From assembly GCA_965220935.1 (NCBI GenBank), contig OZ244857.1:1672929-1736928 (forward strand): DNA of 64,000 nucleotides, read 5' to 3'. Under the pieces are notes generated by a model that was not told the origin of the DNA, did not search any database, and saw nothing but the letters and a program-made list of their open reading frames with translations. Source of the DNA: Rhodothermales bacterium (GTDB lineage: Bacteria > Bacteroidota > Rhodothermia > Rhodothermales > Bin80). The position numbers were made by a program, and so were the translations under genes. Within the stretch, counting starts at the first letter, position 1. Each line of letters opens with the position of its first letter. This document shows positions 6,660-51,964 of the stretch, piece by piece.

Positions 6660-6794
6660 TCACTGGATGAAGAAAATTGGGGGGGGGGGTAATCTCAAAA
6701 AGTAGTCACTCACATTTGTATGGAGAGAGTCAGCACTCACAACAGATCCGTGAGCCATAAAAGAAACGCAGAGTAAAGTATTGAGAATTAACAT
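6660..6794 (-). other. Detached leader ORF encoding the Sec signal peptide of the giant FN3 gene. It ends just after the poly-C tract.
   Basis: Hand translation from the ATG at 6794 gives MLILNTLLCVSFMAHGSVVSADSLHTNVSDYFLRLPPPPIFFIQ*. It has a hydrophobic signal-peptide core and then L-PPPP-IF, exactly as in the paralog (MPILNFLLVVLLAS...SSILPPPPIFSGD). It is in the +1 frame relative to ORF 1184..6652. Confidence 0.8.
6679..6689. repeat. G11 homopolymer (C11 on the coding strand) between the signal-peptide leader and the body of FN3 gene 1
   Basis: Counted directly from ...aaaatt gg ggggggggg taatc. A tract of C10 or C13 would fuse the leader to the 1822-aa ORF (TTA CCC CCC CCC CAA TTT TCT TCA TCC AGT GAG ACG GGT GTG CAG...). 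Confidence 0.95.
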
Positions 6795-7122
6795 AATAAA
6801 TTAATGAGGTTATGAACCGTACCAGTCACTAAAAAACAGTCTACAATCAAAAGACTGTAAAGGTTCCTTATGAATGATAACTACTGTGCTACTGTTGTGT
6901 TGATTAACTGCCAAAAACATCCAAAATATTAGATATCAATTCTCTAGGAAGCCAAAGGAAACAACGCCGAGTACAAAGAAAAACTTAGTGCCTCTAGACC
7001 ATTCTATCAGCCCAAAATACATTTTGGGCTTCTACTCAGTCTTTTTCAAGATGACACGTGATAACCGATAGATGCAGATAACAAAATCCTGTGTGAGGTT
7101 TACTGAGCGTGAATAATTGTTG

Positions 7123-8049
7123 CTATGATTCTGCCCAGGGAATCCATCCATCCCACTTATGACCAAAATCAAATTGTTCAGGATATAGACATTCAGCGAG
7201 AATTTCTGCCGACTCAACAACTCGGGGCCCAGGCCGATTAAAATACTGATTCCCATCGGTCACATAAATTCTGCCATTCTTCACAGCTGACAGGTTTTTC
7301 CATTCCAGATGTGAGGTCAGTGGCTCCATCTCACGAAGACATCGCTCTATACCAAACCCGCAGGGCATGATTGCAATAACGTCGGGTTGTTGCGATATGA
7401 GGTCGTCCATTGAATAGTATCCTGAATGCTTGCCAGACTCGCTAAATAGATTTTGGCCTCCAGCAAAATCTACAAGAGTCGGAACCCAGTTCGCTGCAAT
7501 CATCAATGGATCAGTCCATTCAATACAAGCGATCCTTGGCTTCCAGGCGATTTTTTGAGTCTGATGATGGATTGACCTTAGTCGATTTTGCAAATTGGCG
7601 GTTAATTCTACTCCCCTATCTGGAACACCTAGTGCACTTGCAACCAACTGGATGTCAACCCATATATCTTCAAGCGACATGGGTTCTAATGAGACAATAG
7701 CAGGCGCGGAGCTCACCAATCTGCTGACCGCTAGTTCAACATCCTTGAGACTCACAGCACAAACTTCGCACTGTGTTTGTGTGACGATGAGCGTTGGTGA
7801 CAGTTGATTCATCAGATCGGAATCAACCTTGTATACAGATAAGCCCTCGTTAACGATCCCACGAACCTGATCGTCTATTTCACCACTGGATAATTCAGTT
7901 TGTACCTTTGAAGAAGAGCATACGGGGATGTGTTTGATCGTAAGAGGATAGTCGCATTCATGTGATTTACCAACAAGATTCTTTTCAAATCCAAGAGCAC
8001 ATACAATTTCTGTAGCACTGGCAATGAGAGATATAATGCGATGATCCAT
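7123..8049 (-). CDS. BtuF/FhuD-like (cluster A/TroA-fold) cobalamin or iron-chelate binding protein without a signal peptide
   Basis: 308 aa. The N-terminus MDHRIISLIASATEIVCALGFEKNLVGKSHECDYP is typical of the periplasmic-binding-protein type 2 (BtuF-like) family. No hydrophobic leader is present, and no permease or ATPase genes are adjacent. Confidence 0.6.
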   Translation of the reverse strand: MDHRIISLIASATEIVCALGFEKNLVGKSHECDYPLTIKHIPVCSSSKVQTELSSGEIDDQVRGIVNEGLSVYKVDSDLMNQLSPTLIVTQTQCEVCAVSLKDVELAVSRLVSSAPAIVSLEPMSLEDIWVDIQLVASALGVPDRGVELTANLQNRLRSIHHQTQKIAWKPRIACIEWTDPLMIAANWVPTLVDFAGGQNLFSESGKHSGYYSMDDLISQQPDVIAIMPCGFGIERCLREMEPLTSHLEWKNLSAVKNGRIYVTDGNQYFNRPGPRVVESAEILAECLYPEQFDFGHKWDGWIPWAES

Positions 8050-8429
8050 TTAGTTCAAATCTACTAGATATTCTTGATCTGCTCATAATTAAATCATGTG
8101 CATATTTGACTGAATATAACGCTCGTCTAAGACCATGGACTTACGGTTTGTGTAATAAGAGAAAAGATTAAACCTGCGGAGCGGGTCTTCTGCTGATCGT
8201 TTTTCTCATTCACCTGAATTTACCCAAGATTCCGTTATTTTTGTGAATATATGGCAAAGTGCCTGAAAACGCATAAACATCATCTATTAGCAAGACGGCT
8301 TACTCAACGAAAAGAGCGATCTAAGACTGACGGATCTTATCTTAGTCCCATCGCATTCAATCAGGTGCTGAGGATTGACCTACCAGTACCGCTGGATAGT
8401 GTCCAATATGATGCTCACAGCCTTTCACT

Positions 8430-10670: not shown

Positions 10671-10729
10671 CTATCCTCTTTAAATTTATGTTCTCTGAAC
10701 AGCTGTTAATGAAGTTCAGAAAACCGTGC

Positions 10730-10996
10730 CTACTTTCGTAGACCCAATGCCTTAGCTATAGTCCGATAACGCTCAATATCCTTATTCATCAAGTAGTTGA
10801 GCATTCTACGACGCTTACCAACGAGTTTCAATAGTCCGTGTCTCGTTGCATGATCTTTCTTGTTTCTGTTCAAATGTTGCGTCAAATGACGAATTCGTTC
10901 CGAGAAAATCGCAATCTGAACTTCGGCCGTTCCCGTATCCGTGGGGCCACTACCATATTTTGTAGCAAATTCTTCTGTCTGTTCTTTTGTTATCAT
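10730..10996 (-). CDS. rpsO: 30S ribosomal protein S15
   Basis: 88 aa containing [53 protein letters not shown]. Confidence 0.95.
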
Positions 10997-11087
10997 CCTG
11001 TTGTTATAAAATGCCTTGTACTAATCTGGTCCATGTCATACACCTCTATCAAAGGGTAAATGATGTTGACTTGATAAAATCAACACA

Positions 11088-12035
11088 TCAAACCAGATGC
11101 CAATGAGAGTGTTCCAAAATCGCTCTTGAAATCTTTTCGTCCCCCATCATGGCCGCCCGAAGTTCGTCTAATGAGTCAAAATATTGCTGATCACGAATCT
11201 TCTCAATGAAATAAACCGTTAACTCTTTTCCGTAAATAGACCCCTTAAAGTCTAGCAAATGGACCTCTAAATGAACCCCCTCACTATCTTCTATGGCCGG
11301 CCGCGTTCCAATACTCATGATACCACCCCTGCGCTGACCAGAGACATCAACACTGACCACATAAACGCCGTGCGCGGGAATCACTTTATCAGGATCTATA
11401 AGGGTAATATTTGCAGTTGGATACCCCAAGTTCCGCCCTCTCCCATCTCCATAAACCACATTTCCAGTGAGTGTGTAAGGGGATGTTAATAATGTTGCTG
11501 CGCGAGCGACATCTCCATTTTCTTGGAGTAGATCTCGAATTTTGCGAGATGAAACCACCGACCCATCTACAGAATGAGGGGAAACCGTCAAAACACTGAA
11601 GTTCAGAAGTTTTCCCTGAGAGATAAGTAAATTCAGATCTCCTTTACGATCATTACCGAATCGGTGATCATAGCCGATCACAATGCTATCAAGTCCTATA
11701 GATTTGACAAGAAATTCTGTTATAAACTGTGTTGCACTTAACTGAGAGAATTCATGAGTAAATGGCACGACCACCATTCGGTCTATTCCAAGAGAAGATA
11801 AAATTGATTCACGCTCATTGATCGTTGTAAGTTTGGGTGTTTTTTCTCCCAGTAGCACCTCGCGCGGATGGGGATCAAAGGTGATTAAACTGCTGAACCC
11901 ATTGTACTTTTGGGCGAGCGCCATGAGATGGCTAATAATTTTACGATGTCCCAAATGGATCCCATCAAAGATGCCGACGGTAACGATACTGTGATCATGC
12001 CGTGTCACTGAGTCAAGCCCCTGCTCAAAGATCAT
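11088..12035 (-). CDS. ribF: Bifunctional riboflavin kinase / FMN adenylyltransferase
   Basis: 315 aa with VGIFDGIHLGHRKII, LGYPTANI, and a C-terminal riboflavin kinase domain. It overlaps truB by 4 nt. Confidence 0.9.
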   Translation of the reverse strand: MIFEQGLDSVTRHDHSIVTVGIFDGIHLGHRKIISHLMALAQKYNGFSSLITFDPHPREVLLGEKTPKLTTINERESILSSLGIDRMVVVPFTHEFSQLSATQFITEFLVKSIGLDSIVIGYDHRFGNDRKGDLNLLISQGKLLNFSVLTVSPHSVDGSVVSSRKIRDLLQENGDVARAATLLTSPYTLTGNVVYGDGRGRNLGYPTANITLIDPDKVIPAHGVYVVSVDVSGQRRGGIMSIGTRPAIEDSEGVHLEVHLLDFKGSIYGKELTVYFIEKIRDQQYFDSLDELRAAMMGDEKISRAILEHSHWHLV

Positions 12036-12823: not shown

Positions 12824-12856
12824 TGAAATAAGTTAATATCCACACATTAAATTGGA

Positions 12857-13213: not shown

Positions 13214-13215
13214 GA

Positions 13216-17840: not shown

Positions 17841-17853
17841 AAATGATTATATT

Positions 17854-20879: not shown

Positions 20880-23516
20880 TTAACTGGAATCTAAAATTTC
20901 AAAAAATGCTTCCTTAAACTCCTCCTTATTATGCCCCATTTGATTGAAAAAGGGCAATCCGCGCACAATGTACTCTTCTACCTGAAACACTTCTTGAACT
21001 TTATCAGTCCATTGTATATTCGCCATAAAATCTTGTTTCCATAAATCATTGGATATGAGATGTTCTCCTTTGGGCTCAATAAATAACTGGAGAATATTTC
21101 CAACTTCTTCACCTTTTTTCCGAAGAAATAAGATAAAGTCAGGCTCAAATCCCTCCCCATTTTCAAAAGAGTAAAGTTTTACGGCCTTTTCATTTCTCAG
21201 AAGAAAAAAATCATCATATCGTTTTTTGAGGTTTTCGGCCTCGTAATACAAATACTCAATGAAGCGCTTTTCCTCGCTTGTTCCATAACTCGTATCATAA
21301 GCGTGCCAATCTTCATCAATTGGATTAATAAGGTTTAGGTTCGGTAAATTGCTCTCCTTCCAGCTAAGCCCTTTTTCACCTTGAATTTTAATTTTCAGTG
21401 TCTTATCAACAAAGCACTGGCTGATTTTCTTACGCGTGAACTCAGTTGTTCCGACGAATTCTGCCCTACGACGCTTCAAACTAATCTCAATTTGATTAAG
21501 GGCATATTGTACAATTTTAACACTCTGACGAGCAGTTATTCGTTCAAGATCTTCACGATTTCCTCGAACCTGAATATTCACATTTCTTAGGAATAATTCC
21601 GAAGTTTGAAACTCTAGTGTACTTCGGAGGTGTGGAAAATATCTTTGTAGGTTAACGAAGTGAAAAAAATCATTGGAGTCCATGGCAAAATCCAAAATAG
21701 ATCTGTCAAATTCTGATACATTCAAGTTTTTAGAAACCACTGTAGAATTATTGCCACATTGACTTCCCCCTTCGTCATTGTGATTAAAGGCTGATATTTC
21801 GGTGACTTGTCCTGTCATCAGAGTGTGTGGAAATACAAAGTTTGTTTCTATTTCGTAGGATCTCAATTGGCCAATACTTTCAGGTAAGAACTTGCTTCTC
21901 CGATCATTGACCCACACATAACCGATCTTATAAAACTGTGATTGCTTAAAACTGTCTTTCAGACGTAGATGTACTGTACGGCTTTTTTCATCATGCATTC
22001 CGATTTTTTTAAGTGCTCGCTTAAGCTCATCAATGTATCTTGGATTATGGGAGCAGTGATAATGTAGCTCCTCCAAAATTCTTAGATTGTGTTCTATATT
22101 TCTATCGTACTTACGCTTTTCTGGTGTGGCTTCTGGTAAATCGGGATCCATAAACGGGAAATATCTGGCACCCCGCCCTATGAGTTGCGCCTCTGACATA
22201 GTTGTTGCGCCAATCCTTTCGCCTCTACTATCTCTAGTATTATATAGGCGCACAATGTCAAATAAATTTAGAACGTCCCATCCCTCATCCAACTTATTGA
22301 CTGCAAAAATTACTCGAAGATCATTAGATTTGTCTTCCAGATTGTTTAAGTCTATCTGAAGATCCTCAAGATCTATAAGTCTGTTTACATTTGCGGTCTT
22401 CCCGTCTCCAAAATCCCCTTTTAACTCAAGTGCAAAATCATCAAATTCTATTCCGCATTCGTCAATGATATATTCAAAAGCTCCTGATAAGGTCATGTCG
22501 TTCACTGATGAATTACGAATTTGTCTAAGATTATCACCAGACAATCCATTGACCATGGATACAAATAAAGTCTCATTTTCGGCCGATTGGGCAATAGTTT
22601 TGGACTTCATTAGAATCACAGGCTTACAAAATATTCCATGTGCTTCTGCTACTTTTCGCCTGTATTGACTTAACACCATGGCTTGTAGCATTCGATCATG
22701 CGGAGTTAAATCGGCCTGCCTTAATTCAATATCTTTTGAATATCCATCCGCCCTAAAATGCTTTAATTGGTAATCATAAATGACCTTGTCGTAATACTTT
22801 ATCTTAATTTCACTGTGATTGAGATCAGCAGTAGCAGTAAACTCCAATAGAATATTTTTAGAGTGTTGATCAAAAATAGATGTGACGGTATTTTCCCAGC
22901 TTTTGAGCCCAGTAACCTCGGTAGATGTTAAATTGTTTCTTGTGTGTGCATTTAGATGGTGAGCCTCATCCGAGATCATAACTATTTGGTGTTCCTGAAA
23001 ATCTTCCATTGTTACAGCATCTTCTCTGGGATTGAGCATTCTTGTGTGTAACCCTTGAATTGTAGTAAAATGAATATTGATCGTTTGAAGATTCGCTGCC
23101 TCAAAGGTATCAACTGCTTGAACTTCCACTTGCTTACCATCAATGCGTATGTTCTGACTGAATAAATATTTCAGCGATTGTGAGTTAAGAAAATTATCTC
23201 TGGTTTTTTCAATTATCTGATTTGAGTTTACAAAAAACAGGAAATTCCTATAGCCCCGACGATAAAGATCAAGTATTAAAGCAGCCATCAATACTGTTTT
23301 ACCGCTTCCTGTTGCCATGTGAAACAGCAAATGAGGTCTTGGTGATCTGTGGTTATACTTATCAATGTAGTAAAACCACCGTTCAATTGCTTCAACTTGA
23401 TAAGGACGAAGATTAATTCTTTGGGCAAGATTGTCAGTGATATTGGATGGTAAGTCTTTTTTTAAGATATCCTGCTCTGACAATGTGTCAAATGTTTCAA
23501 GAAGACTCCGTTTCAT
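20880..23516 (-). CDS. res: Type III restriction enzyme Res subunit (SF2 helicase + PD-(D/E)xK nuclease)
   Basis: 878 aa with motif I FHMATGSGKT, motif II MISDEAHHL and motif VI QLIGRGARY. The C-terminal nuclease-like segment is GFEPDFILF...LQLFIEPKGEHL. The start overlaps the upstream mod stop (ATGA at 23513..23516). Confidence 0.85.
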   Translation of the reverse strand: MKRSLLETFDTLSEQDILKKDLPSNITDNLAQRINLRPYQVEAIERWFYYIDKYNHRSPRPHLLFHMATGSGKTVLMAALILDLYRRGYRNFLFFVNSNQIIEKTRDNFLNSQSLKYLFSQNIRIDGKQVEVQAVDTFEAANLQTINIHFTTIQGLHTRMLNPREDAVTMEDFQEHQIVMISDEAHHLNAHTRNNLTSTEVTGLKSWENTVTSIFDQHSKNILLEFTATADLNHSEIKIKYYDKVIYDYQLKHFRADGYSKDIELRQADLTPHDRMLQAMVLSQYRRKVAEAHGIFCKPVILMKSKTIAQSAENETLFVSMVNGLSGDNLRQIRNSSVNDMTLSGAFEYIIDECGIEFDDFALELKGDFGDGKTANVNRLIDLEDLQIDLNNLEDKSNDLRVIFAVNKLDEGWDVLNLFDIVRLYNTRDSRGERIGATTMSEAQLIGRGARYFPFMDPDLPEATPEKRKYDRNIEHNLRILEELHYHCSHNPRYIDELKRALKKIGMHDEKSRTVHLRLKDSFKQSQFYKIGYVWVNDRRSKFLPESIGQLRSYEIETNFVFPHTLMTGQVTEISAFNHNDEGGSQCGNNSTVVSKNLNVSEFDRSILDFAMDSNDFFHFVNLQRYFPHLRSTLEFQTSELFLRNVNIQVRGNREDLERITARQSVKIVQYALNQIEISLKRRRAEFVGTTEFTRKKISQCFVDKTLKIKIQGEKGLSWKESNLPNLNLINPIDEDWHAYDTSYGTSEEKRFIEYLYYEAENLKKRYDDFFLLRNEKAVKLYSFENGEGFEPDFILFLRKKGEEVGNILQLFIEPKGEHLISNDLWKQDFMANIQWTDKVQEVFQVEEYIVRGLPFFNQMGHNKEEFKEAFFEILDSS

Positions 23517-24782
23517 AGATCTATTTTGTAGAATTTTCTGGTAATTTCTACATTTTCATCAGAGATTGAAAACCACTCATCGCCGAGTGAATGGATGTTA
23601 ACATATAAATGATTGGCATCCATACAATCTTTCAGCGCTCGCTTCGCATCATCCATGGAAAGATTCGTAAATTTTTCTGATGCAAAAGATTTCATATTGA
23701 CATCATAGCGAAGAAAACCAGTCTTTTGTATTTCGTTTTTGATGCAAAGTAGAGTTTTGAAGTCAGTAGCTGCGTCAATTTTCTCCATAAATTGTGAGTT
23801 AGAGTCTGCAAGTTGAGCATAAATAAATGAACCACCTCCTGCCCAGTCAACTACCTTAGAAACTCCACCCTGTTCGCCTTCAATGACCTTTTTTAGGCGG
23901 ATCTTGATTAAGTCATCAACATAGTTCATCTGTTCAATTGCAATCCATTGACGCCCCATCTTGTGAGCAACTGCTGGCGTGGTGCCTGACCCTGCAAAGA
24001 AATCCATCACAATATCATTCGGATTTGTTGATGCGCGGATGATTAGTTCTGCAAAGGCTTCTGGCTTTGGATAGGCAAAATCCACTTTCCCAAATATCTT
24101 ATTTCGTTCTTTGGTTGCTTTCTGATTCATGTATTGATTATCTGCACCTTCAAGGCTTCCAAGTAAATTATATTCGCTTTTGATTTCACTTAAATAGCGC
24201 TTAAAAATAAAGCCTCTCTGATTTTCAGAATGCTTTTTTCTAAATTTGATTTTTCCAGATTTAATGTAATCTCGAAGTCTCCCTCCCGAAAATAGCCACT
24301 GGCGATTTTCGGGAGGGAGATCAACTTTCCCTGTATATGGGTTCTTAATTGGAAAATAATAATCACCCGACCGAGCACTTGGATTATCACTTGCCCATGG
24401 TCCATTGGGATCATTGTCGGGGTTCTTGTAATTCTCAAATGTCTTTTTTTTACCAACTAATTCAATCTTGGACTTATCCTTTGCATAGATGAGTGTATTT
24501 TCGTGCTGAATATTAAATCCAGTTCTCGCATCATTAGTTGTTGACTTTGTCTTCCTTATTAAATCTCCCACGAAGTTCTCTCTTCTGAATATCTCATCCA
24601 TCAACACTTTGAGATAGGCCTGTTCATTATCGTCAATATGGATAACTATCAACCCATCATCTGTAAGAAACTGTTTGGCCACTTCAAGTCGATTACGCAT
24701 GAACGTGAGCCACGAACTGTGATTGAATCTGTCATTATATCTGAACCCATCATTCCCCGTATTGTAAGGGGGATCAATGTAA

Positions 24783-25391
24783 ATCAATTTCACTTTCCCC
24801 GCATAGCGAGTTTTCAGTGAATGGAGAGCTAAGAGATTATTACCCTTAATCAGCAAATTGTCATCTTCACGCACCTCACCTACTGCACTGGAAAATGCCC
24901 CCCCCCCCCCCCCATTTTTTCTGGATTGACACTCCAGCGCTCCCATCCTGTCAACACCTTTGGCTCAAACAATCTTGTAATGTCATCTGGAGACAACACA
25001 GTGTTCCAGAATATCTCTTTTCTCCCCCGATCTTCCTTTGTCATACCACCCTCCAAAACACAGTCCTTGTAAGGCCATGTAAGGACTACATCGCGTGACT
25101 GACTTAAATGATTCCCTCGCCCATCTACCAGACCAATACGATTTTTGAATGCCGTGTAACTGTTTGGGAGAAAGGTCTTGTTTGACACAAAACTTTGGAA
25201 TTTCACCTTGTCAAAAACCAGGGTTTTACCAACTTTGACAAAAAAGTGTGATTTGATTTTTTCGGATTGAAGTAGCAGTTCAAGAAGCCTTTTATCCAAA
25301 CGCAAGGCCGCTTCAATGACAACATTTCGGAGAATCTCTCCATCAGAAATATACTCAGACTCAGACTCTAATAACTTGATTAAATCGTTAA
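24783..25391. repeat. Direct repeat copy A: 5' module of mod copy 1 (609 nt including C16)
   Basis: By-eye alignment to 26830..27433 shows no differences apart from homopolymer length. The encoded N-terminal ~175 aa are identical in the two ORF translations. Confidence 0.85.
24898..24913. repeat. C16 homopolymer (G16 on the mod coding strand)
   Basis: Counted directly: ...gaaaatg ccc / cccccccccc / ccc atttttt. Tracts of G11, G14 or G17 would be in frame; G16 is not. Confidence 0.95.
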
Positions 25392-25562
25392 AGAGATTTT
25401 GCATGTTTGATGCTTATGACCGTGATTGTTCGGTTTGAAAGTTTATAAATTGATAGATCAATTAATGTTACCGTTAAATAGTATTCCAAATAAGACATAC
25501 GGGAGATCATCTCAAAGTCAAACCCTCAAAACCAGAAATATACGAACTTCTAAGTATAATCA

Positions 25563-27488
25563 TTACGAAATGCCGTAAAATTTACGAGTCAATTCTGCAT
25601 CTTCTTTGGAAATTGTATGCACTTCATCGCCGAGCGAGTTGAGGTTTACATATAGATTATTGGTATCCAAGCAATCCATCAACAAACGCTTTGCATCATC
25701 CAGAGGAATATTGAAGAAATCATTATCATCAAATGGTTCCAAGTTAACATCATATCTGAGAAAACCTGTTGCTTGAATTTGATTCTTTATCGCATAGAGT
25801 TTTGAAATATCAGTAGCGATAGAAATTTGATCTACAAAAACCGAATTTGAATCCGCAAGCTCTGCATAAATAAATGATCCACCTCCAGTCCATCCGATAG
25901 TTTTTGATATTCCACCTTGCTCACCTTCAATCACCCTCTTCATTCGTTCAATCGTAGTATTTTGGATATAATCCATTTGTTCAATTCCAATGAATCTCCG
26001 TTTCATTTTATGTGCGGTGCTAATAGTGGTACCGCTTCCTAAATGATAATCTAGCACAATATCTCCTTCATCGGTTGACAGTTGTATAATTCTTTCCATT
26101 AACCCCTCTGGTTTAGGATTAGCAAATACTTTTTGCCCAAATAACTGTTTAAGGTGTTGTGTGCCATTTGTAGTTGTTTGTAAATCTCTCCACAAGGTAG
26201 TTGTAACTTCCCCTCGTGATTTCGCTTCAGACCAAAATCTTTTTCTCTGAGGACCGGCTTCGCCAGAAATACCAAATACAATCCGACCATCAGCGAGTAA
26301 TTCATCAAAAACTTTTTTTTCATTTTTCCAACTATTTCCTTTATTGGGCTTATATACCACTCCTGTATGTGGATTAGTAATTTCATATAACTGATTAGGT
26401 CTTTTTCCCCCAACCTGGAAGGGATCTGCCACCCATTTGCCTCTTGCATCATTATCTGGATTTGAAAATTTACTTTCATCACTGGGGAGTCTAAACTGAG
26501 TTCTATTTTTCTTCAACTGTTTTATATCCTTTGAGTACAATAACAAATGAGTATGTGCATTGGAAATTAAAGCTGTATTGGTCACTGACTTTGTGGAATT
26601 CCATATGACATCAGCTACAAAATTATCTCTTCCAAAAATTTCATCCATCAATATTTTACAATAGTGCGCCTCTTCATCAGACAGTGAAATCCAGAATAAA
26701 CCATCCTTAGATAATAATTCTCTTGCCGCTTCCAAACGATTTCGCATAAACGTCAGCCATGTTGAATGCCTGAATCGGTCGTTATACTGGAAACCGTCAT
26801 TTCCTGTATTGTAAGGGGGGTCAATAAAGATCAATTTCACTTTCCCCGCATAGCGAGTTTTCAGTGAATGGAGAGCTAAGAGATTATTACCCTTAATCAG
26901 CAAATTGTCATCTTCACGCACCTCACCTACTGCACTGGAAAATGCCCCCCCCCCCATTTTTTCTGGATTGACACTCCAGCGCTCCCATCCTGTCAACACC
27001 TTTGGCTCAAACAATCTTGTAATGTCATCTGGAGACAACACAGTGTTCCAGAATATCTCTTTTCTCCCCCGATCTTCCTTTGTCATACCACCCTCCAAAA
27101 CACAGTCCTTGTAAGGCCATGTAAGGACTACATCGCGTGACTGACTTAAATGATTCCCTCGCCCATCTACCAGACCAATACGATTTTTGAATGCCGTGTA
27201 ACTGTTTGGGAGAAAGGTCTTGTTTGACACAAAACTTTGGAATTTCACCTTGTCAAAAACCAGGGTTTTACCAACTTTGACAAAAAAGTGTGATTTGATT
27301 TTTTCGGATTGAAGTAGCAGTTCAAGAAGCCTTTTATCCAAACGCAAGGCCGCTTCAATGACAACATTTCGGAGAATCTCTCCATCAGAAATATACTCAG
27401 ACTCAGACTCTAATAACTTGATTAAATCGTTAAGGATATTTTGTTGATTTCCTGAATAATCCTGATTTCTGTTCATGATTGATGCCAT
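25563..27488 (-). CDS. mod: Type III DNA methyltransferase Mod (copy 2, intact, N6-adenine beta-class order IV-TRD-I)
   Basis: 641 aa with IFIDPPYNTGNDGF (motif IV), a central region divergent from copy 1 (candidate target-recognition domain), and VLDYHLGSGTT (motif I). The poly-G tract encodes GGG in frame. Confidence 0.9.
   Translation of the reverse strand: MASIMNRNQDYSGNQQNILNDLIKLLESESEYISDGEILRNVVIEAALRLDKRLLELLLQSEKIKSHFFVKVGKTLVFDKVKFQSFVSNKTFLPNSYTAFKNRIGLVDGRGNHLSQSRDVVLTWPYKDCVLEGGMTKEDRGRKEIFWNTVLSPDDITRLFEPKVLTGWERWSVNPEKMGGGAFSSAVGEVREDDNLLIKGNNLLALHSLKTRYAGKVKLIFIDPPYNTGNDGFQYNDRFRHSTWLTFMRNRLEAARELLSKDGLFWISLSDEEAHYCKILMDEIFGRDNFVADVIWNSTKSVTNTALISNAHTHLLLYSKDIKQLKKNRTQFRLPSDESKFSNPDNDARGKWVADPFQVGGKRPNQLYEITNPHTGVVYKPNKGNSWKNEKKVFDELLADGRIVFGISGEAGPQRKRFWSEAKSRGEVTTTLWRDLQTTTNGTQHLKQLFGQKVFANPKPEGLMERIIQLSTDEGDIVLDYHLGSGTTISTAHKMKRRFIGIEQMDYIQNTTIERMKRVIEGEQGGISKTIGWTGGGSFIYAELADSNSVFVDQISIATDISKLYAIKNQIQATGFLRYDVNLEPFDDNDFFNIPLDDAKRLLMDCLDTNNLYVNLNSLGDEVHTISKEDAELTRKFYGIS
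26830..27433. repeat. Direct repeat copy B: 5' module of mod copy 2 (604 nt including C11)
   Basis: See 24783..25391. The copies are offset by about 2.04 kb in the same orientation. Confidence 0.85.
26945..26955. repeat. C11 homopolymer (G11 on the mod coding strand), in frame
   Basis: Counted directly: aatg cccccc / ccccc atttt. Confidence 0.95.
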
Positions 27489-27618: not shown

Positions 27619-28848
27619 CTATTCATGGGGGGACGGTTTGGCCCAGATGGTTAAAACCAACTCCTCACCATATAAATTATACACGGGGGTTTGACCTGAA
27701 TGACTTTTGCATATGCTTAATATAGTCCTAACTCCCTCACCACGAGATTCAAGGATCACTTTACCAGTAGATGAGGCTTTTATTCGTGATAAAAAATTGA
27801 CCAATAGCTGATTTCTAGTGAATACGCGATACGCCATTAGCTCAATGGTAATTGCATTGGGTAAGTCACCAGGGCTATAAATCTCAATCCGGTCTGAAAA
27901 TAAAAACATCCGAATCTTAGATCCACGGATTGAGTAATCTCTGTGCGCCACAGCATTGACGATTGCCTCACGAATTGCGCGGAGGTCATACTGAGGATAC
28001 TCAATTCGTCCAGCAGGCTTACGAGCAGGTTTCAGCATAAATCGATCTACAAACTTAATCGCACTCTCAATCTGAGTATCCACAGTGCTCTCAATACGCT
28101 CACTATGGACTAAGTCATCCGAAGTAAATTGAATACTTTTATACACGGCTGCTTCAATATATGCGTTCTGCATGTAGTTCTGAGGTGACGTACCGAATAT
28201 CAAAAGTCCTGTAACAGTTGTGCGAAATAAATCATCATCAATTCTTGAAATTACTTTGGTGTTTCTTAGTAAATCAACCCATGAAAGAGTCTTGGAGTGC
28301 CCTCCAAAATAAGATTCTAATTTACTTTGATCAAGATCATCTATTGTGGTACCTGGAACTAATTGTTCATCAAAAATAAATGTGCGCTCCCTTTCTTGGT
28401 ATAGCCGGGGAAGCATAGGCCCTTTGAGCAATTGTTTAGTTGATCCAACGCGCACATAATGACGACCACTGCTGGTAATATGAACATATAATCCTTTTGG
28501 AATTTTGACTAATAAAATTGTAGCATTTTCACCGTTCGGCATGGGAAGATACTCCCACTGGAGTGAGGGATTTAATGGCGGATCGCAGCTATTTGTAGCT
28601 ACATTGATGATCCAGTGCTCAATATCCTTGAGACGATCTTTCGGAAACCCTCTAACAATTCCATCGTCATCTACCCCTAGGAAGATCGTACCTCCGTTAG
28701 AATTGGCAAAAGCAACCATTTCCGAAGCAATTGCATCCTCGTTTGGTGATCGCACGCCATGCTTTGCCATAACTACTTGTTTAAATTCAGAGTGAGAACC
28801 CTCTCCAAGAGATAACTGCTTAAAAATTTGATTTGTTGTGTAGTGCAT
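27619..28848 (-). CDS. AlbA_2 (Schlafen-like) DNA-binding domain + HATPase_c_4-like ATP-binding protein (COG2865-type putative regulator)
   Basis: 409 aa. The N-terminal SEFKQ...EMVAFANSNGGTIFLGVDDDGIVRGF is the AlbA_2 signature. The C-terminal IREAIVNAVAHRDYSIRGSKIRMFLFSDRIEIYSPGDLP...TRNQLL is the RecG-C-terminal-like HATPase_c_4 signature. Confidence 0.7.
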   Translation of the reverse strand: MHYTTNQIFKQLSLGEGSHSEFKQVVMAKHGVRSPNEDAIASEMVAFANSNGGTIFLGVDDDGIVRGFPKDRLKDIEHWIINVATNSCDPPLNPSLQWEYLPMPNGENATILLVKIPKGLYVHITSSGRHYVRVGSTKQLLKGPMLPRLYQERERTFIFDEQLVPGTTIDDLDQSKLESYFGGHSKTLSWVDLLRNTKVISRIDDDLFRTTVTGLLIFGTSPQNYMQNAYIEAAVYKSIQFTSDDLVHSERIESTVDTQIESAIKFVDRFMLKPARKPAGRIEYPQYDLRAIREAIVNAVAHRDYSIRGSKIRMFLFSDRIEIYSPGDLPNAITIELMAYRVFTRNQLLVNFLSRIKASSTGKVILESRGEGVRTILSICKSHSGQTPVYNLYGEELVLTIWAKPSPHE

Positions 28849-39065: not shown

Positions 39066-40448
39066 GGGCCTCCCATTTTTTAAGTGGGTGATATTTTCAG
39101 AAATGGGTAAACGAGGGTAACAAGAATAAGGTTCGGTAAGGATTTTTATAGTAGTTTAGATTTGTTTATCTATCCTTCAACTTATCAAAAAAAGATGGCT
39201 TTAAAAATAACGGATGTGAATCATTTGATTGGTATTGCGTCACCGTGTCCGAGATTGAGCAGGAGACGAGTCGTTATGCGGCGAGGATCCATGTAGCGCT
39301 TTCGGGGGATGCGGAGTTAAGGTGTCCGGAGTGTGGGAAGGCGTGTCCGGGGTATGATCACCGAGAGCGACGCTGGCGCCATACTAATATCTGTGATTAT
39401 CGTACGGAGGTCGTCGCGAAGGTGCCCCGTGTGCAGTGTCCACAGCATGGTATGAGTACGATTTCGGTTCCTTGGGCCGATGCTCGTGTGCAATTCACGT
39501 CCAGTTTTGAGGCCTGTGTGATGGATTGGTTGCATGATGCAACCAGCATTTCAGTGATCGCGAAACGCTTAGGGGTGAGTTGGACGATGATCGCTCATAT
39601 TATGGATCGTGGAATCAAGCGTGGATTGGAGCGCAAGCCAGAGAAGATCGTGCCTCATATTTGCGTAGATGAGACAGCGTCCAAGAAGGGGCACAACTAT
39701 GTGACGATTGTATCGGATCCTGCAACGGGTACGGTGTTACATGTGTCAGAGGGGCGAACAATAGAGAGTTTATTAGAGTACTACGATAGTTGTTCACCTG
39801 AGCAAATTGCAGGGATTGAAAGTGTGAGTATGGATATGTGGCCTGCCTACATCACTGCAACAAGGATGCGTATACCCGATGCCGATTGCATTTGACCATT
39901 TTCATATCTCTAAATATGTTGGAACTGGGGTGGATGAGGTTCGCAGAGAGGAGAATCGTGCGTTAAAGAAACTGGGGATTCTGGATTTGGTAGGGACAAA
40001 GTATGATTGGCTTAAGAATCGGGCCAGCATGTCGGCCAAGCAAAAGAAGCGGTTTAACCTCTTGAAAAACAGTGCACTGAAAACAGCACGCGCTTGGGCG
40101 ATGAAAGAAGTGTTCCAGACGCTGTGGAAGTATAAACATCGCACTTGGGCGCTCAAAGCATGGAACCGTTGGTTAGGGTGGCTCTCACGCAGTCGTCTGG
40201 AGCCGATGAAAAAAGTGGCTAAAACCATTAGAAGTCATCTTTGGAGCATGATCAATGCGGTGGTTTTAGATGTGAGTAATGGGCCGGCTGAAAGCATCAA
40301 TAGTCGCATCAAAATGATCAAAATCCGTGCGCGTGGATTCAGAAATCCTGAACGATTAAAGAATGCAATTTACTTCTATCTTGGTGGACTTGATTTGTAT
40401 CCAGAAGGCACCAAAAATCGGCCAACCCACTCTTAAAACGGGAGGCCC
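39066..40448 (+). mobile_element. ISL3-family insertion sequence, copy 1 (degenerate)
   Basis: Imperfect terminal IRs are gggcctcccattttttaagtgggt (left) and the reverse complement of acccactcttaaaacgggaggccc (right). It is about 98-99% identical to copy 2. The flanks ttattaat and gatttaat are not a clean 8-bp duplication. Confidence 0.85.
39195..40436 (+). pseudogene. ISL3-family transposase in three pieces
   Basis: zf-ISL3 CPECGKAC...; DDE_Tnp_ISL3 (CVDETASKKGHNYVTIVSD, MDMWPAYI, FDHFHISKY). Relative to copy 2, a 7-nt net deletion at ~39246 shifts the N-terminus. The shared frame break is at 39879..39895 (RIPDADCI* / MPIAFDHFH). Confidence 0.85.
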
Positions 40449-40735
40449 GATTTAATTAGCTCATTAAACTGAATACCCCTATCAGGTGGGTCACTGATTT
40501 TGAGCATTTGCTCAGGGCAGTCATGCACAGAGGTACCTTGAGGCTTGAATGTTGGATGTTTTCTTGAACGAATGCTTTTTACACTGACATACCTTTGTTG
40601 ATAAACACTTTCGTCAAGAAATGCGTGCTGTCCGAAGAAAATTTGACCGATTGAACGACAGTAATCAACAAAACACTTTGATCCTTTAAGCTGCTGTATG
40701 ATCTGAAACGATTTGCCATGTTTACCGTGTTTCAT
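40433..40735 (-). pseudogene. Remnant ORF whose 3' end runs into the ISL3 right end (possible PD-(D/E)xK-like fragment)
   Basis: The last ~5 codons and the stop lie inside the IS terminal repeat. The frame is open upstream to ~40845 without an ATG (..GRALIISSEGSHRNWIIYIEMKHGKHGKS..). No secure family assignment. Confidence 0.25.
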
Positions 40736-47041: not shown

Positions 47042-47290
47042 TTGCACCAAAAGCAAGGCATTACCCACTTGAACAAAGTCTTACAGTATGCTCCAATGGT
47101 TGCTACTGGTCAGGAAGCTGTAGTGCATTTAACGACTGAAGATTGGTATGTCGTTGCTGATACTCTCTTTCAGATGGATACACCCAAAGAGTTTTTGCCT
47201 GAAAGCATCAAAACTTTCCGCTTACGCGACGATCATAAAGCCATTGAGTTAGATACCGGTGAGCTACAGATCAGCATAGAGATGTTCTGA
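47042..47290 (+). CDS. Hypothetical small protein (82 aa, TTG start)
   Basis: ORF only, in a ~1-kb otherwise non-coding gap. Confidence 0.25.
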   Translation: MHQKQGITHLNKVLQYAPMVATGQEAVVHLTTEDWYVVADTLFQMDTPKEFLPESIKTFRLRDDHKAIELDTGELQISIEMF

Positions 47291-47440
47291 ATCCGACAGT
47301 CATTCAAGACTGTATAAAGAGATGACTGCTACGTAGAGCAAAGTAGTTATGTACTGTCTGATGATACCACCTAATTTATTCTGCCATTGAACAGTGAATT
47401 GTTCAGATTTTCCACATCGCCCGATAAATGGTCAGCCTCA

Positions 47441-50400
47441 TCACTGGACGCTGATAAAGTGCCCGACATAGACCGAAGATGAATGGTCTTCAAGAGAGAT
47501 CGCCCGCAATTGATAGAGATACGGCCCTGAGGGGAGTCCCAAATCGCTCAGTTCTAGTTCATGCCGCCATCCCGCGCTGAGGTGTACTTCTTGGGGCGCA
47601 GCCATGCGCCGCCCAATGATATCCAGAACCTCCACCTGCACCTGCGCAGGCCACGGCAGATCAAAGACTAAATGTGTTGACCTGTAGAATGGATTCGGAT
47701 AATTCGGATACACTTGAAACGCCTCAGGCAGCCCCGCTTCATCTTCGGTGTTGACCGGTGACACAACCTCTATGGTAAACATCAGACTGTCGCTCGCTCC
47801 ATTGGCATCGGTGGCCTTGTAGGTCAAAGAGACTGGCGGTATAACGTCTGTGGGCGTGCCACTGATCGTTCGGGCTAAGCCATCATAGCGAAGCCCAAGT
47901 GGGAGATCCAGTAGTGTTAAGGTGTAGGTAATCGGAGCTACGCCTGTGACTTCTGGAAGCACAAGTGGAGCAATGGGCTGAGCGCGGGAGTACGTCTGAT
48001 TTGGCACCGTCTCGGCAAACGACAGTTGATACACCTCAAGCGTGAAGGTTTGCTCTGTGCGCGTTCCCGCCTGATCTTGTACGCTGTAGGTATAGGTCTG
48101 AGCCGTGGCCACCTCGGAGGGCGTTCCGCTCAGCGTGCGCGTGGTCGCATCAAACATCAGTCCACTGGGGAGCTCTGGGGTTAAGGTGTAGCTGTAAGGG
48201 GCAATGCCGCCTGTGGCAACGGGAAAGACGAGGTCTTTCAGCAGCCTCTGCACGGGAACTCTCTGATCGTTGACCGTTTCGGTCAAGGTCAAGGCCTCGG
48301 CCTGAACAATCGCAATGGTAAACTGCTGCATCACTGAATGAGCACTGGCATCGGTCGCCGTGTAGGTATAGGTTTTCGGGGCCGTGACTTCGGTGGGAGT
48401 ACCACTTAAAGCCCGCGTAGACGCATTAAAGGTGAGACCCTTTGGCAACTCTGGGGTGAGCGTGTAACTGTAGGGAGGCGTTCCTTGCCGCGCGGCTGGA
48501 AGCATGAGAGCGTCAATGGCTAACCCGACATAATAGGATTGATCATCCAGCGTCTGAGCAAACGATAAGGCCACAGCATCATTATCGGTAATGGTGAGCG
48601 TAAACGCTGTGATGGATCCAAGTGTATAGGCGGTGCTACTGACCAGGGTCACGATGACGGTTTCGTCGGGTTCTTCGTCTTGGTCATCGACGATCACAAT
48701 GGGAATCTGTGCAGAGGTGCCATTGAGTGTGACCGAGGATTGAATCGTATAGTCCGAGCCCTGGGTGGCCGTCCCTGACAGGGTATAACTGAGCGTGGTC
48801 GCCGTGCTGGATGAGGCGCTGAGAGTCACGCTGATCGGATAGGTGCCCGCCGCTTCATCTACGCTGGCCGAGGCCACGGTAAAGGTGAGTGCTGGCGCAG
48901 TTGCGTCATCCTCTCCACCACCGTCGTCATCATCCCCATCTCTGTCATCACTCGCCGTGGTCGCATTAGCCACATTGGATGGCATCCCTGCACCTGCCGA
49001 GTTGATCGCACTGACCCGGTAATGCCGCGTCACACCTGCGGTCAGGCCCGTATGAGAATAGGAAGTCGTCGGATGACGCGCGACCAGCGAGCCAAATGTG
49101 GTCCCACCATCCGTGGATACTTCAATCTGGTAGCCTGTAATTCGCCCACCGCCATTACTTGATGGGGCCGTCCAGCCTAGGTTGATGATCGTTTGCCCAG
49201 AGGCGGTTGCGGTGAGCGATGTTGGCGCGCCGGGCACCGTCGGGTTTGCCGCATCCGCGGTCGTCGCCGTGGCCACATTAGATGCGGGGCCGGTATTAAC
49301 CGAGTTGATCGCACTAACGCGGTAATGCCGTGTCGTGGCTGCGGAGAGGCCGGTGTGCGCGTAAGGAGGCGTTGGGTGACTCGCTACCAGATCCGTAAAT
49401 GTGTTACCATCCGTGGATACTTCAATCTTGTATCCTGTGATTTCTGCACCACCCGTACTTGTCGGCGCTGTCCAACTCAGATTGATCGTCGTTTGCCCTG
49501 AAGCGGTGGCGTTGAGCGACGTCGGCGCACCGGGCGCCGTGGCTACAGCTGCGGTTGTGGCCATGGCCACATTGGACGGTGTACTTGTGTCCACATTATT
49601 GATGGCGCTGACCCGGTAGTGCCGCGTCGTACCTGCACTCAAGCCCGTATGAGAATAGGTCGTAGCCGTGGATTCGGTATTGTCCGCCAGATCGGTCCAC
49701 TCCGAGGTGCCATTGGGCGAGACCTCAATCTGATATCCCGTAATGCGCGTGCCACCCGTACTTTCGGGTGCTGTCCAACTCAGGTTGATGATCGTTTGTC
49801 CATCGGCCATAGCGGTCAGCGATGTCGGCGCACCGGGGGCGGTGATGGCCGGAGGGGTGCCCGTCTCGCCACGCACCACCTCGGACACAATGCCGACTGG
49901 AAAACGTCCCGTGATGGCGGTGACCCGATAATGACGCGCATCTCCTCTGGATAGTCCAGTATGTTGATAGAATGTGGCCGTGGACATGGTATTAGCCACC
50001 AGATCCGTGAAACTAGTGCCATCGGTGGATACTTCAATCTTGTATCCTATGACCAGAGAGCCTCCATGGCTCTCGGGCGGAGACCATCTCAGGTTGATGA
50101 TCGTATGCCCGCCCGGGGTTGCCGTCAGAGACTGGGGCGCCGTGGGCGCAGTCACCGTTCCTGTGATGCGGGCACGCACGATCTCAGACCGACTCCCCTC
50201 GCCCTTCGCATTGATGGCGCGTACAAAATAACGATAGGTCGAGTCCACCACTAAATCCATATGCGTATAACTTCGGATCGCCGGTCCAACGCTGGGCTGG
50301 TTATTCCATATATAATCACGCTCTCCGCTGAAATTATAATTCACCTCATAGCCCGTGATGGGAGACCCTCCGTCGTAGGGAGCGGTCCAGGTGATGGTGG

Positions 50401-51964
50401 CCGATCGATCCGTGCCGGCGGTCGCTGTCACTCCTGGTGGACGATTGGGTCTCACGCTTGGCCCCGTTGTGATGCGGATGATATTGGAGGGGTGTATGCT
50501 TTCTCCTGCCTGTCTGCTGATGGCATACACCCTGTAGTGATATACGGTCTCCAGGGTCAGCCCAGTATGGGTATAGGACGTCTCTACGGTCGTGAAGGAA
50601 GTAATGGGGCCCACCGTAGTCCAGCTATCGGTTCCATTAGGAGACACCTCAATCCGGTAGCCTGTGATTTGAAGGGTGCTCGCTGCGGGTGCGGTCCATT
50701 TCAGGCTCACTCGGGTGGGCGATCCCGAAGTGATGATCAGATTATCCGGCCGTCCCGTCATGGCCAAAGGGGGCGTCGGAGGGCCAGTCCCCGCCAAACT
50801 GATTGCACTGACGCGGTACTGGCGCGCCTGTCCCAACCAGACCTGCCCAGCATCGGTGGTATGGTCATGCGAGTAGGTTGTAGTCGTTGATTCGGTATCG
50901 TCTTCTAGCGTAATCCAGCTGCTCCCTGGAACTGTGAGTGAGAGGGCTTCCACCTTGTACCCCGTGATCGAGCTGCCTCCATCATCGGCGGGGGCAGTCC
51001 AGGAAAGATCCGTGGATTCAGATCCAGCGGTTGCACGTAATGCGGTTGGAGCATCCGGGGGATCCGTGAACGCAATGAAGACAGGATCTGAAAAATGACT
51101 GCTTCTAGTAATGAACTGATTACGACCATATTCCGAAGATATTACGTACCCATAGGTTTTGCCTATCTGTACATTATTGTCGGTATAGGTCAATGAGGTT
51201 GCGGGATGGGTCCTTTCAATTCGAGTGAGAAAATCTCCATTATTATCGGCACGAAACAAGGCATAAAAATAAACCTGATTTCCATCGGGGAGATCCGTCG
51301 GGGCATCCCAAGAAATCTGGGCTACATCAGTGGACGTTTTTGTTACCCTCACATTCGTGGCGATGCCTGGCCCTGAGGCAGCTATGGCCGTAGTGGAAGA
51401 TTCATTCGATGGAGCACTTTCTCCCTCCATATTCAGGGCACGAACCCGATAATGAAAGGTGGCACCTGGCGTCAATCGCAAACTCAGATGAGAGAATCGA
51501 CTAAGAGTTCTTTGGGTATCTCCAACCAAAACCTCCCAGTTTGTGCCACCATCGGTGGACCATTCAATCTTGTACCCCGTGATGGGAGAACCACCATCAT
51601 TGACCGGGGCAAACCATGACATATTGATTTGGTAAATGCCTGTGGGCGGCCCTGCCGAGAAATTCGTGGGGGGATCTGGTACGGCTTGACCTGTTGTCTC
51701 GGTGGAAACGAGTGTTGACCCTGCTGTCCAAGCCGTGATGGTTGTTGGTGTAATAGACGTTACGTCAGGTATTTCGCCAGCCAAGAGAGATGTACCCTCT
51801 AAAGACTCTGGCTCGGAAAATCCATCTGGCAAACTGCCTATGACGCGATCGCCCGAAAAAATGGGGGGGGGGGGCAGAATGGAAGAGTGACTATGAATCG
51901 CCCCACTTCCATCATTGGAAGCCAGTAAGACTACTAAAAGAAAATTAAGTATTGGCATTGTCAA
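47441..51964 (-). CDS. Giant FN3-repeat / Calx-beta / Ig-like surface protein with signal peptide and T9SS C-terminal sorting domain (intact paralog)
   Basis: 1507 aa. The signal peptide is MPILNFLLVVLLAS (likely ATG at 51958). About 9 FN3 modules carry the ..ITGY(K/Q)IEVS.. motif. A poly-Asp linker precedes a Calx-beta-like module (TLSYTLSGTATQGSDYT...IVIVDDQDEEPDETV). Four Ig-like modules follow (PYSYTLTPELP.GL.F...R.LSGTP). The CTD is YPNYPNPFYRSTHLVFDLPWPAQVQVEVLDIIGRR...GPYLYQLRA. Confidence 0.92.
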   Translation of the reverse strand: MTMPILNFLLVVLLASNDGSGAIHSHSSILPPPPIFSGDRVIGSLPDGFSEPESLEGTSLLAGEIPDVTSITPTTITAWTAGSTLVSTETTGQAVPDPPTNFSAGPPTGIYQINMSWFAPVNDGGSPITGYKIEWSTDGGTNWEVLVGDTQRTLSRFSHLSLRLTPGATFHYRVRALNMEGESAPSNESSTTAIAASGPGIATNVRVTKTSTDVAQISWDAPTDLPDGNQVYFYALFRADNNGDFLTRIERTHPATSLTYTDNNVQIGKTYGYVISSEYGRNQFITRSSHFSDPVFIAFTDPPDAPTALRATAGSESTDLSWTAPADDGGSSITGYKVEALSLTVPGSSWITLEDDTESTTTTYSHDHTTDAGQVWLGQARQYRVSAISLAGTGPPTPPLAMTGRPDNLIITSGSPTRVSLKWTAPAASTLQITGYRIEVSPNGTDSWTTVGPITSFTTVETSYTHTGLTLETVYHYRVYAISRQAGESIHPSNIIRITTGPSVRPNRPPGVTATAGTDRSATITWTAPYDGGSPITGYEVNYNFSGERDYIWNNQPSVGPAIRSYTHMDLVVDSTYRYFVRAINAKGEGSRSEIVRARITGTVTAPTAPQSLTATPGGHTIINLRWSPPESHGGSLVIGYKIEVSTDGTSFTDLVANTMSTATFYQHTGLSRGDARHYRVTAITGRFPVGIVSEVVRGETGTPPAITAPGAPTSLTAMADGQTIINLSWTAPESTGGTRITGYQIEVSPNGTSEWTDLADNTESTATTYSHTGLSAGTTRHYRVSAINNVDTSTPSNVAMATTAAVATAPGAPTSLNATASGQTTINLSWTAPTSTGGAEITGYKIEVSTDGNTFTDLVASHPTPPYAHTGLSAATTRHYRVSAINSVNTGPASNVATATTADAANPTVPGAPTSLTATASGQTIINLGWTAPSSNGGGRITGYQIEVSTDGGTTFGSLVARHPTTSYSHTGLTAGVTRHYRVSAINSAGAGMPSNVANATTASDDRDGDDDDGGGEDDATAPALTFTVASASVDEAAGTYPISVTLSASSSTATTLSYTLSGTATQGSDYTIQSSVTLNGTSAQIPIVIVDDQDEEPDETVIVTLVSSTAYTLGSITAFTLTITDNDAVALSFAQTLDDQSYYVGLAIDALMLPAARQGTPPYSYTLTPELPKGLTFNASTRALSGTPTEVTAPKTYTYTATDASAHSVMQQFTIAIVQAEALTLTETVNDQRVPVQRLLKDLVFPVATGGIAPYSYTLTPELPSGLMFDATTRTLSGTPSEVATAQTYTYSVQDQAGTRTEQTFTLEVYQLSFAETVPNQTYSRAQPIAPLVLPEVTGVAPITYTLTLLDLPLGLRYDGLARTISGTPTDVIPPVSLTYKATDANGASDSLMFTIEVVSPVNTEDEAGLPEAFQVYPNYPNPFYRSTHLVFDLPWPAQVQVEVLDIIGRRMAAPQEVHLSAGWRHELELSDLGLPSGPYLYQLRAISLEDHSSSVYVGHFISVQ
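51863..51874. repeat. G12 homopolymer (C12 on the coding strand), encoding PPPP directly after the signal peptide of FN3 gene 2, in frame
   Basis: Counted directly: at gggggggg / gggg cagaat. The minus strand reads ATT CTG CCC CCC CCC CCC ATT TTT TCG. Confidence 0.95.

Follow-up and report, generated by a model that had tools for sequence, protein, structure and literature searches.

The 64-kb window analysed here (contig OZ244857.1 of a Rhodothermales bacterium; 45% G+C; all positions given below are those of this window unless another locus is named) carries four long G/C homopolymers, each of them in the 5' coding region of a minus-strand gene. Two of the genes are tandem mod genes of a predicted restriction-modification (R-M) system of Type III that have one res gene in common, and the other two, denoted surf1 and surf2 below, encode FN3-repeat proteins predicted to be cargo of the type IX secretion system (T9SS). 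The four tracts are probably genuine hypermutable homopolymers in which slippage reversibly shifts the reading frame of the respective gene. All four are length-polymorphic between assemblies or strains, with conserved flanks, and because the lengths differ between genomes that are otherwise identical or near-identical, the tracts can be expected to act as on/off contingency switches. A contingency-locus function of mod and surface genes in a T9SS-bearing bacterium of the Fibrobacteres-Chlorobi-Bacteroidetes (FCB) group had been proposed in the first-pass annotation of this DNA and is borne out by the comparisons presented here: the lengths vary, the flanks are identical or nearly so, the frames flip, and the mod site is conserved across species.

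The four homopolymers of at least 11 nt that this annotation listed in the 5' coding regions of two paralog pairs were reproduced at the same positions and in the same genes. They are the only G/C homopolymers longer than 6 nt in the window (lengths of 11, 11, 12 and 16 nt). The run-length spectrum includes ten 6-nt runs, none of 7-10 nt and then only runs of 11 nt and above, in agreement with the earlier observation that no comparable G/C tract is found elsewhere in this stretch. Under an order-0 model of the window, about 0.009 G/C runs of at least 11 nt are expected (0.002 + 0.007), compared to the four that are observed. The longest A/T runs in the window reach 8-9 nt only, and no further short-unit repeats were detected in it by Tandem Repeats Finder. 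The tracts had also been described as lying within the first ~190 codons of their genes, which is an apt description of the mod tracts (codons 164-182), whereas the surf tracts are located at codons 29-39, not near codon 190.

Frame states of the tandem mod genes

Judging from domain content and gene order, the locus is a predicted Type III R-M system that consists of Mod and an adjacent Res. The upstream DNA methyltransferase gene, modA (25563..27488, minus strand), contains a target recognition domain (TRD) of type A and encodes a protein of 641 aa, or 637 aa as called in the public record; the 641-aa form has no exact match in the protein collection or on record, where the 637-aa form is present. 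The second, tandem methyltransferase gene, modB (23513..25404, minus strand), contains a TRD of type B and is split into 174 + 477 codons, and its fragments appear as products of 174 and 395 aa in the public annotation. Both mods match PF12564 (TypeIII_RM_meth) and PF01555 (N6_N4_Mtase) above cutoff, and the IDPPYNTGND (DPPY) and (L/A)GSGTT motifs are present in the Mod sequences. The single restriction subunit gene, res (20880..23516, minus strand; 878 aa, Pfam ResIII/DEAD), is located 3' of both mods, its start codon overlapping the stop codon of modB (ATGA). The res product matches PF04851 (ResIII) with E = 3.5e-32 and is assigned on record to the HI_1054_N and HI_1054 families.

In modA, the G11 tract (sense strand; 26945..26955, minus strand) spans codons 178-182, encodes a Gly run within a variable linker and is in frame (ON). 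The G16 tract of modB (sense strand; 24898..24913, minus strand; codons 164-169), which lies ~2 kb away, is out of frame (OFF), and a length of either G14 or G17 gives back a protein of 629-631 aa. Each is a mononucleotide tract of at least 9 nt inside a mod open reading frame (ORF), the definition of phase-variable mods applied by Atack et al. (2018).

The frame states of the two genes can be compared directly with those in a second assembly that represents the same strain (ENA ERZ25072152, ctg52284_11x_l; 1.8 Mb), which covers positions 1-33513 and 42092-64000 of the window and shows 0 mismatches across 55.4 kb. The differences between the two assemblies are solely in the mod tracts, where G11 of modA is replaced by G13 and G16 of modB by G17. 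As a result, the window has ModA ON and ModB OFF, and the second assembly has ModA OFF (183 + 452 aa) and ModB ON (630 aa). Thus, as is characteristic of phase-variable mods, ON and OFF alleles of both genes are observed (G11/G13 and G16/G17), and mixed states are found over five related loci, which are described below.

Comparison of the two paralogs shows that residues 1-255 of ModA and ModB are nearly identical, that the central TRD is diverged and that the C-terminal parts are ~75% similar, an arrangement that is classical for mod alleles. On the 5'-coding side of the tracts (24903-25202 and 26945-27244), 300 nt of DNA are 100% identical, compared to 84% identity over the 258 nt on the other side, suggesting that gene conversion has recently made this region, tract flank included, uniform. 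When Mod is aligned with 12 homologues, the Gly run is seen to lie where the N-terminal domain is connected to the methyltransferase core, in a linker of variable length. Length changes of 3 nt are therefore likely to be tolerated, which would explain how G11, G14 and G17 could all be functional. The GGG stretch is present at this linker in the closest relatives only, and distant Mod homologues lack a Gly run there, indicating that the mod tract arose independently, within this Rhodothermales clade.

To place the window among its relatives (loci used in the comparisons are numbered with the prefix L below), NusA served as the anchor in a search against one genome per GTDB species; the species of the window is not among the representatives scanned. 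The nearest NusA sequences come from metagenome-assembled genomes (MAGs) of uncultured Rhodothermales or "Bacteroidetes bacterium" (80-91% identity), followed by genera of the Salinibacter group at ~63%. The relatives are apparently sponge symbionts, an assumption that we base on the names of MAGs and studies (CAR3, RHO1/3, SB0661, bin80, KELL22/jk18/p16), many of which point to MAG studies of sponges and corals, rather than on a verified record; the names KELL22/jk18/p16 presumably refer to an Ircinia study (PMC9531527), a lead taken from the names only.

In two related loci, L008 (Rhodothermales MAG, JAJECE01) and L010, which show ~72% Mod identity and 83% NusA identity to the window, the genes are arranged in the order mod-mod-res upstream of a release-factor gene, in synteny with the window. 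The mods of the related species contain a poly-G tract of G9-G12 at the same linker site, preceded by GAAAAAAT. The tracts are G9 (OFF, 183 + 453 aa) and G10 (ON, 636 aa) in L008, and G10 (OFF, 177 + 475 aa) and G10 (ON) in L010; at the same site in further species, G9 is ON in L011, and G12 in L016 and G9 in L025 are OFF. The tandem mod architecture is shared with the window by L008, L010 and L016 in which the TRD order is swapped: in L008 and L010, a B-like TRD (85%) is found in the first gene and an A-like TRD (79%) in the second. Together with a short remnant of the res N-terminus that follows the first mod in L010 (7655-7906), this reversal suggests that the mod array arose by duplication of a mod-res unit, with a later exchange of TRDs. 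Between modA and modB of the window, unlike in L010, no res remnant was found. Exactly one Mod is ON in each of the four dual-mod loci (4/4), an outcome with a probability of ~0.04 by chance if the loci were independent; since they are not, this regularity was set aside as evidence.

The R-M locus has a different appearance in a sister strain, which is represented by a circular contig of 4.15 Mb with 1281x coverage (ERZ25070844, ctg10149_1281x_c) and shows about 96-98% nucleotide identity to the window and 98.4% over the 14.4 kb adjoining surf1. Both mod genes are lost in this strain (L005 1-6500), the transposase genes DDE_Tnp_1 and DDE_Tnp_ISAZ013 are found in their place, and the res gene is broken up into two parts (389 + 312 aa). 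This gene content indicates that the R-M locus as a whole is dispensable and is being eroded by insertion sequence (IS) elements. Directly upstream of modA in the window, there is a gene for a 409-aa protein (27619-28848, minus strand) with SLFN/AlbA_2 and HATPase_c_4 domains and no NCBIfam match, which may belong to the same defence neighbourhood as mod-res.

The FN3 genes and the question of decay

The surf1 gene (1170..6795, minus strand; ATG at 6795) encodes a protein of ~1870 aa that has 15 fn3 domains, He_PIG domains and a T9SS type A sorting domain (Pfam, TIGR04183). Its C11 tract (sense strand; 6679..6689, minus strand; codons 36-39) is out of frame (OFF), and the main frame is closed upstream of the tract, at a distance of two codons; a length of C10 or C13 would give the ON state. 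The surf2 gene (47441..51958, minus strand; ATG at 51958) encodes a 1505-aa protein with eight fn3 domains, He_PIG and Calx-beta domains and a T9SS-type C-terminal domain (CTD), and its C12 tract (sense strand; 51863..51874, minus strand; codons 29-32, PPPP) is in frame (ON). In both genes the tract is located directly 3' of the sequence coding for a hydrophobic N-terminus. The CTD of surf1, once repaired as described below, scores 29.7 bits against TIGR04183 (cutoff 23); the CTD of surf2 scores 20.4 bits, just below this cutoff, yet is homologous to that of surf1.

In the sister strain, the surf1 tract is C14, which keeps the same OFF frame as C11 of the window, and an intact 1834-aa ORF including the sorting domain follows downstream. 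The surf2 tract of this strain is C10, which disconnects the frame of the putative signal peptide, and a 1498-aa ORF restarts at a downstream ATG. Accordingly, surf1 and surf2 are both OFF in the sister strain. In the window, surf1 contains a second lesion, which does not involve a homopolymer: one A is missing at 1266..1267 (minus strand; TTAG-CCTG compared to TTAGACCTG in the sister strain), and this 1-nt deletion shifts the frame of the CTD. This deletion is present in both assemblies of the window strain; the sister-strain CTD (L075) is intact and reads ...DQLDLPAGAYLYRV...

A third FN3 paralog is found in the same strain outside the window (L076 7756-11873), with 88-91% nucleotide identity to surf2. 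It is broken into ORFs of 165 + 365 + 657 aa, has an ISL3 remnant upstream, and contains a tract of only C5 between the same flanks as in surf2, as expected once selection for mutability is lost. Neither surf1 nor surf2 has orthologues by synteny outside the species in the 22 related loci, and the surf2 tract with its exact flanks gave zero matches in JGI metagenome contigs. The rule of one ON and one OFF copy per pair, put forward in the first-pass annotation, describes both pairs of the window correctly, but does not carry over to the surf pair more generally, both members being OFF in the sister strain, surf1 being doubly broken and a third paralog being present.

These observations bring up one-way decay as an alternative to switching, namely, that the homopolymers are weak points in the genes of a host-restricted symbiont and that the affected genes are pseudogenes rather than switches. 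The second, non-homopolymer frameshift in the surf1 sorting domain fits this scenario, as do the three pieces of the third FN3 paralog, the ISL3 copies nearby, and the condition of the sister strain, where IS elements have taken the place of both mods, res is split and both surf genes are OFF. As an account of all four tracts, decay nevertheless appears unlikely to us. One and the same allele of modA, and likewise of modB, occurs in both the ON and the OFF state in genomes that do not differ otherwise, OFF alleles retain intact ORFs of 450-1834 codons downstream of the tract, and the mod tract occupies one site across species at 72% Mod identity, several of which have ON alleles. Moreover, it is the truly decayed paralog that has only C5, the long tract being gone. 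The case is different for surf1 of the window strain, which is probably in decay. We accordingly read surf2 as a putative switching gene and surf1 as a gene that, to judge by its lesions, was switching and then started to decay.

The surroundings of the surf genes are variable as well. Synteny with the sister strain breaks off right after surf1 (window positions ~1-1170 compared to L075 19517-22241), with MscS, FolD and SpoIIE beyond it in the window strain and rplK-rplA-rplJ-rplL in the sister strain, so that an end-point of a rearrangement coincides with the 3' end of this FN3 gene. An ISL3-family insertion (52080..53471, minus strand) with an 8-bp target duplication, CTCAAAAT, lies upstream of surf2, 121 bp from its start, and may influence the promoter of this gene; the sister strain lacks the insertion. 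A second ISL3-family copy at 39066-40453 is ~98% identical to it, and the transposase is split in both copies (235 or 216 aa + 185 aa, with the break at profile position 202/203).

Tract distribution, shared flank and remaining alternatives

The distribution of long G/C runs outside the window was examined in the 22 related loci of the clade (430,635 bp), in which runs of at least 9 nt were counted. All four such runs in the clade (4/4) lie inside DNA methyltransferase genes, three at the orthologous mod site and one, A8G9, in another N6_N4 methyltransferase of L024. Runs of 8 nt were found in frame within the IF-2 gene and an S1-like gene. A set of more distant loci (n=42, 694 kb) contained a single C9 among G/C runs of at least 9 nt. 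The pattern that the first-pass annotation had named as contrary to its proposal, long tracts scattered through essential genes, is not what is seen in the clade sequence reached, in which the runs of at least 9 nt are all in methyltransferase genes.

Two loci of the related species deserve separate mention. At position 1116 of L024 (OZ219800.1), the A8G9 run splits the different N6_N4 DNA methyltransferase mentioned above into 167 + 381 codons. At position 1876 of L018 (OZ241874.1), a G8 run splits a large protein, which bears a signal peptide and a T9SS C-terminal domain, into 325 + 1494 codons. Both are possible further switch loci of the clade.

In long-read metagenome data, the residual errors fall mainly into the class of long G/C homopolymers, and accordingly, tract lengths and frame states might be artefacts of sequencing or assembly, the real genes being intact and invariant. 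To judge by the contig names (ctgN_11x_l, ctgN_1281x_c), these are metagenome assemblies from long reads, one of them at 11x only, and the difference between G16 and G17 is a single base. Nevertheless, such an origin of the observed states is very improbable. The second assembly agrees exactly with the window in the C11 and C12 surf tracts, in the surf1 CTD deletion and in the split ISL3 transposases; hence consensus calling is stable at 11-12 nt, and the frameshifts in the CTD and the transposases are real. The change from G11 to G13 involves 2 nt, the 1281x assembly likewise shows out-of-frame lengths, and no housekeeping gene is frameshifted in the compared regions. The contigs of some relatives are named in the way of short-read assemblers (k141_, NODE_), and these relatives have G9-G10 at the mod site and split ORFs, which, as far as the names can be trusted, makes the phenomenon independent of any one sequencing platform. 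Finally, errors alter the length of a tract but would not produce tracts of 11-17 nt that are restricted to two gene families.

Transcriptional slippage at long homopolymers is known in bacteria, and the mod tracts lie in a slippery composite context, A6-T-G(n), but the idea that slippage of the RNA polymerase or the ribosome yields some full-length protein from every allele has little probability as a replacement for DNA switching, given that length variation is seen directly in the DNA, and recoding could coexist with such switching, only making the OFF states leaky.

The flanks of the tracts are similar in the two gene families. When read as C(n), the mod tracts have the flank (tg/ta)-C(n)-ATTTTTTC, the counterpart in surf2 and the third paralog (surf3) is tg-C(n)-ATTTTTTCGGG, and in surf1 it is ta-C(n)-A(A/T)TTTTC. 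Three of the four tracts show the flank C(n)-ATTTTTTC, as had been described. The 8-mer ATTTTTTC, with a per-site frequency of 1.2e-4, stands beside the tract in antisense orientation in the mods and in sense orientation in surf2 and surf3. Species differ in the frame in which the mods are read across this motif, and yet the motif is retained at the nucleotide level. These features could be taken to indicate the spread of a switch cassette, TG/TA-C(n)-ATTTTT(T)C, either mobile or templated, from one of the two gene families to the other, a possibility that the first-pass annotation had raised and that we consider most unlikely. The identical flank of the two mods is a consequence of paralogy, being part of the 300 nt that are 100% identical. 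The match between the mod and surf flanks is limited to ~10 nt in opposite orientations relative to coding and amounts to one post-hoc coincidence of ~5e-4. In a scan of JGI metagenome contigs, GAAAAAAT-G9 was found in at least 120 unrelated contigs, with a Mod or Res homologue in none of those listed, so the motif is not a mod-specific cassette; on the clade itself these contigs carry no information. Convergent selection for an A/T run beside a G/C run, or plain chance, fits equally well with the shared motif and seems more likely than the spread of a cassette.

The interpretation of the four tracts as reversible switches has to be weighed against several facts of its own. The census of the genome in question spans only ~80 kb, a part of the genome rather than the whole. 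Both assemblies of the window strain appear to be long-read metagenomic, one with only 11x coverage, and the 1-nt difference between G16 and G17 could be a consensus error. The reversibility of switching is inferred from the existence of ON and OFF versions of the same allele. The hydrophobic N-termini of the surf proteins (MPILNFLLVVLLA... and MLILNTLLCVSFMA...) have no basic n-region, and these uncharged n-regions make the assignment of signal peptides to surf1 and surf2 uncertain. The FN3 family, in turn, appears to be partly decaying and not cleanly switching, because the surf1 tract leaves the gene in the same OFF frame in the two strains, a further lesion is present in surf1 of the window strain, and the third paralog is degraded.

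The predicted switch and its relation to known systems

If the tracts are switches, slipped-strand mispairing at replication would alter their length and shift the reading frame. A mod tract of 11, 14 or 17 nt would be ON, and any other length would end Mod after ~175 residues. Type III Res is active only in complex with Mod, and each cell would therefore restrict and methylate according to the Mod that is in frame, so that the population would consist of cells with specificity A, specificity B, both or neither. On the evidence of the gene sequences, mod switching is predicted to alter which DNA is methylated and restricted, and it might possibly change gene expression as well, as in a phasevarion. 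In the surf genes, the poly-C tract encodes a Pro run after a putative signal peptide. In-frame lengths would join the export signal to the FN3 body of 1500-1870 aa, and out-of-frame lengths would uncouple the signal peptide, so that the protein would be missing from the cell surface. The likely pay-off is bet-hedging against phage and host recognition.

Phase-variable Type III mods are widespread. In a survey of REBASE, simple sequence repeats (SSRs) were found in 662/3805 Type III mod genes (17.4%), with G[n] tracts as well as species from the environment represented; SSR-switched mods were estimated to have arisen independently at least 25 times, and a mononucleotide tract of at least 9 nt is the accepted criterion for phase-variable mods (PMC5909438). 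The mods of the window resemble modH, modJ and modL of Helicobacter pylori and modU of Campylobacter upsaliensis in having a G tract of at least 9 nt within the mod ORF, strain-variable tract length, frameshift ON/OFF states and several TRD alleles on a conserved 5'/3' scaffold. They differ from those mods in that the tract is in a linker at about codon 165-180 and that the host is an uncultured marine bacterium rather than a vertebrate pathogen. Another similar arrangement is found in Mycoplasma bovis PG45, which has three co-localised GA[n] mod alleles, M1/M2/M3.Mbo45ORF167P (PMC5909438). The two systems share tandem phase-variable mod copies with conserved ends, different TRDs and an SSR at the same position, but in the window the repeat is a homopolymer instead of GA[n], two copies feed one intact res, the ON/OFF states within one strain are reciprocal, and the two TRDs have changed places between species.

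For surface proteins, homopolymers in the 5' coding regions of surface-structure genes are classical in Campylobacter jejuni and Neisseria meningitidis (e.g. NalP and MspA) (PMC3025981, PMC3723659), and inlA of Listeria has a 5' poly-A tract (PMC2831843). Like these loci, the surf genes have a 5' coding homopolymer in the gene for a secreted or surface protein and a frameshift switch. In contrast to them, the protein is an FN3-repeat T9SS cargo of 1500-1870 aa, the tract follows a putative signal peptide, and some members of the family are decaying. The combination of one restriction machine with alternative specificity modules, resulting in a mixed population, is also reminiscent of Type I R-M systems with duplicated hsdS genes and specificity switching (PMC7394358). 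In the window, two complete mod genes would each switch through an SSR frameshift of its own, and not by recombination or inversion as in hsdS.

Slippage at homopolymers as a source of phase variation is a textbook subject for small-genome vertebrate pathogens, and, to our knowledge, is hardly documented for uncultured marine symbionts. Our literature searches returned nothing specific on SSR phase variation in Rhodothermales, sponge symbionts or T9SS cargo, in accord with the statement of the first-pass annotation that a contingency repertoire had not been characterised for T9SS-bearing FCB bacteria. What is new is the lineage and the FN3/T9SS targets, not the mechanism, since phase variation of Type III mods is known to occur widely, environmental bacteria included (PMC5909438). 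More specifically, the additions to the known systems are the reciprocal states seen within a single strain, the conservation of the mod tract throughout the clade, the tandem mods that share one res, and the FN3/T9SS targets. Features with a reported enrichment in sponge microbiomes include FN3 proteins and components of Type III R-M systems (PMC9531527).

A much broader hypothesis, which we can offer only tentatively and regard as rather doubtful, is that an SSR contingency system is maintained throughout a clade of Rhodothermales that live in association with invertebrates, apparently sponges. Such a system would include a reciprocal two-state toggle of Mod specificity in place of two genes switched independently, SSR-gated display of eukaryote-like FN3 proteins for interaction with host or phage, and a flank that is tied to tract mutability, and it would be the first repertoire of this kind for sponge symbionts and for T9SS cargo.

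In practical terms, genes of this kind will be listed as split genes or pseudogenes in the annotation of MAGs. If the switching interpretation is correct, the symbionts would be able to diversify both phage resistance and surface display without gain or loss of genes.

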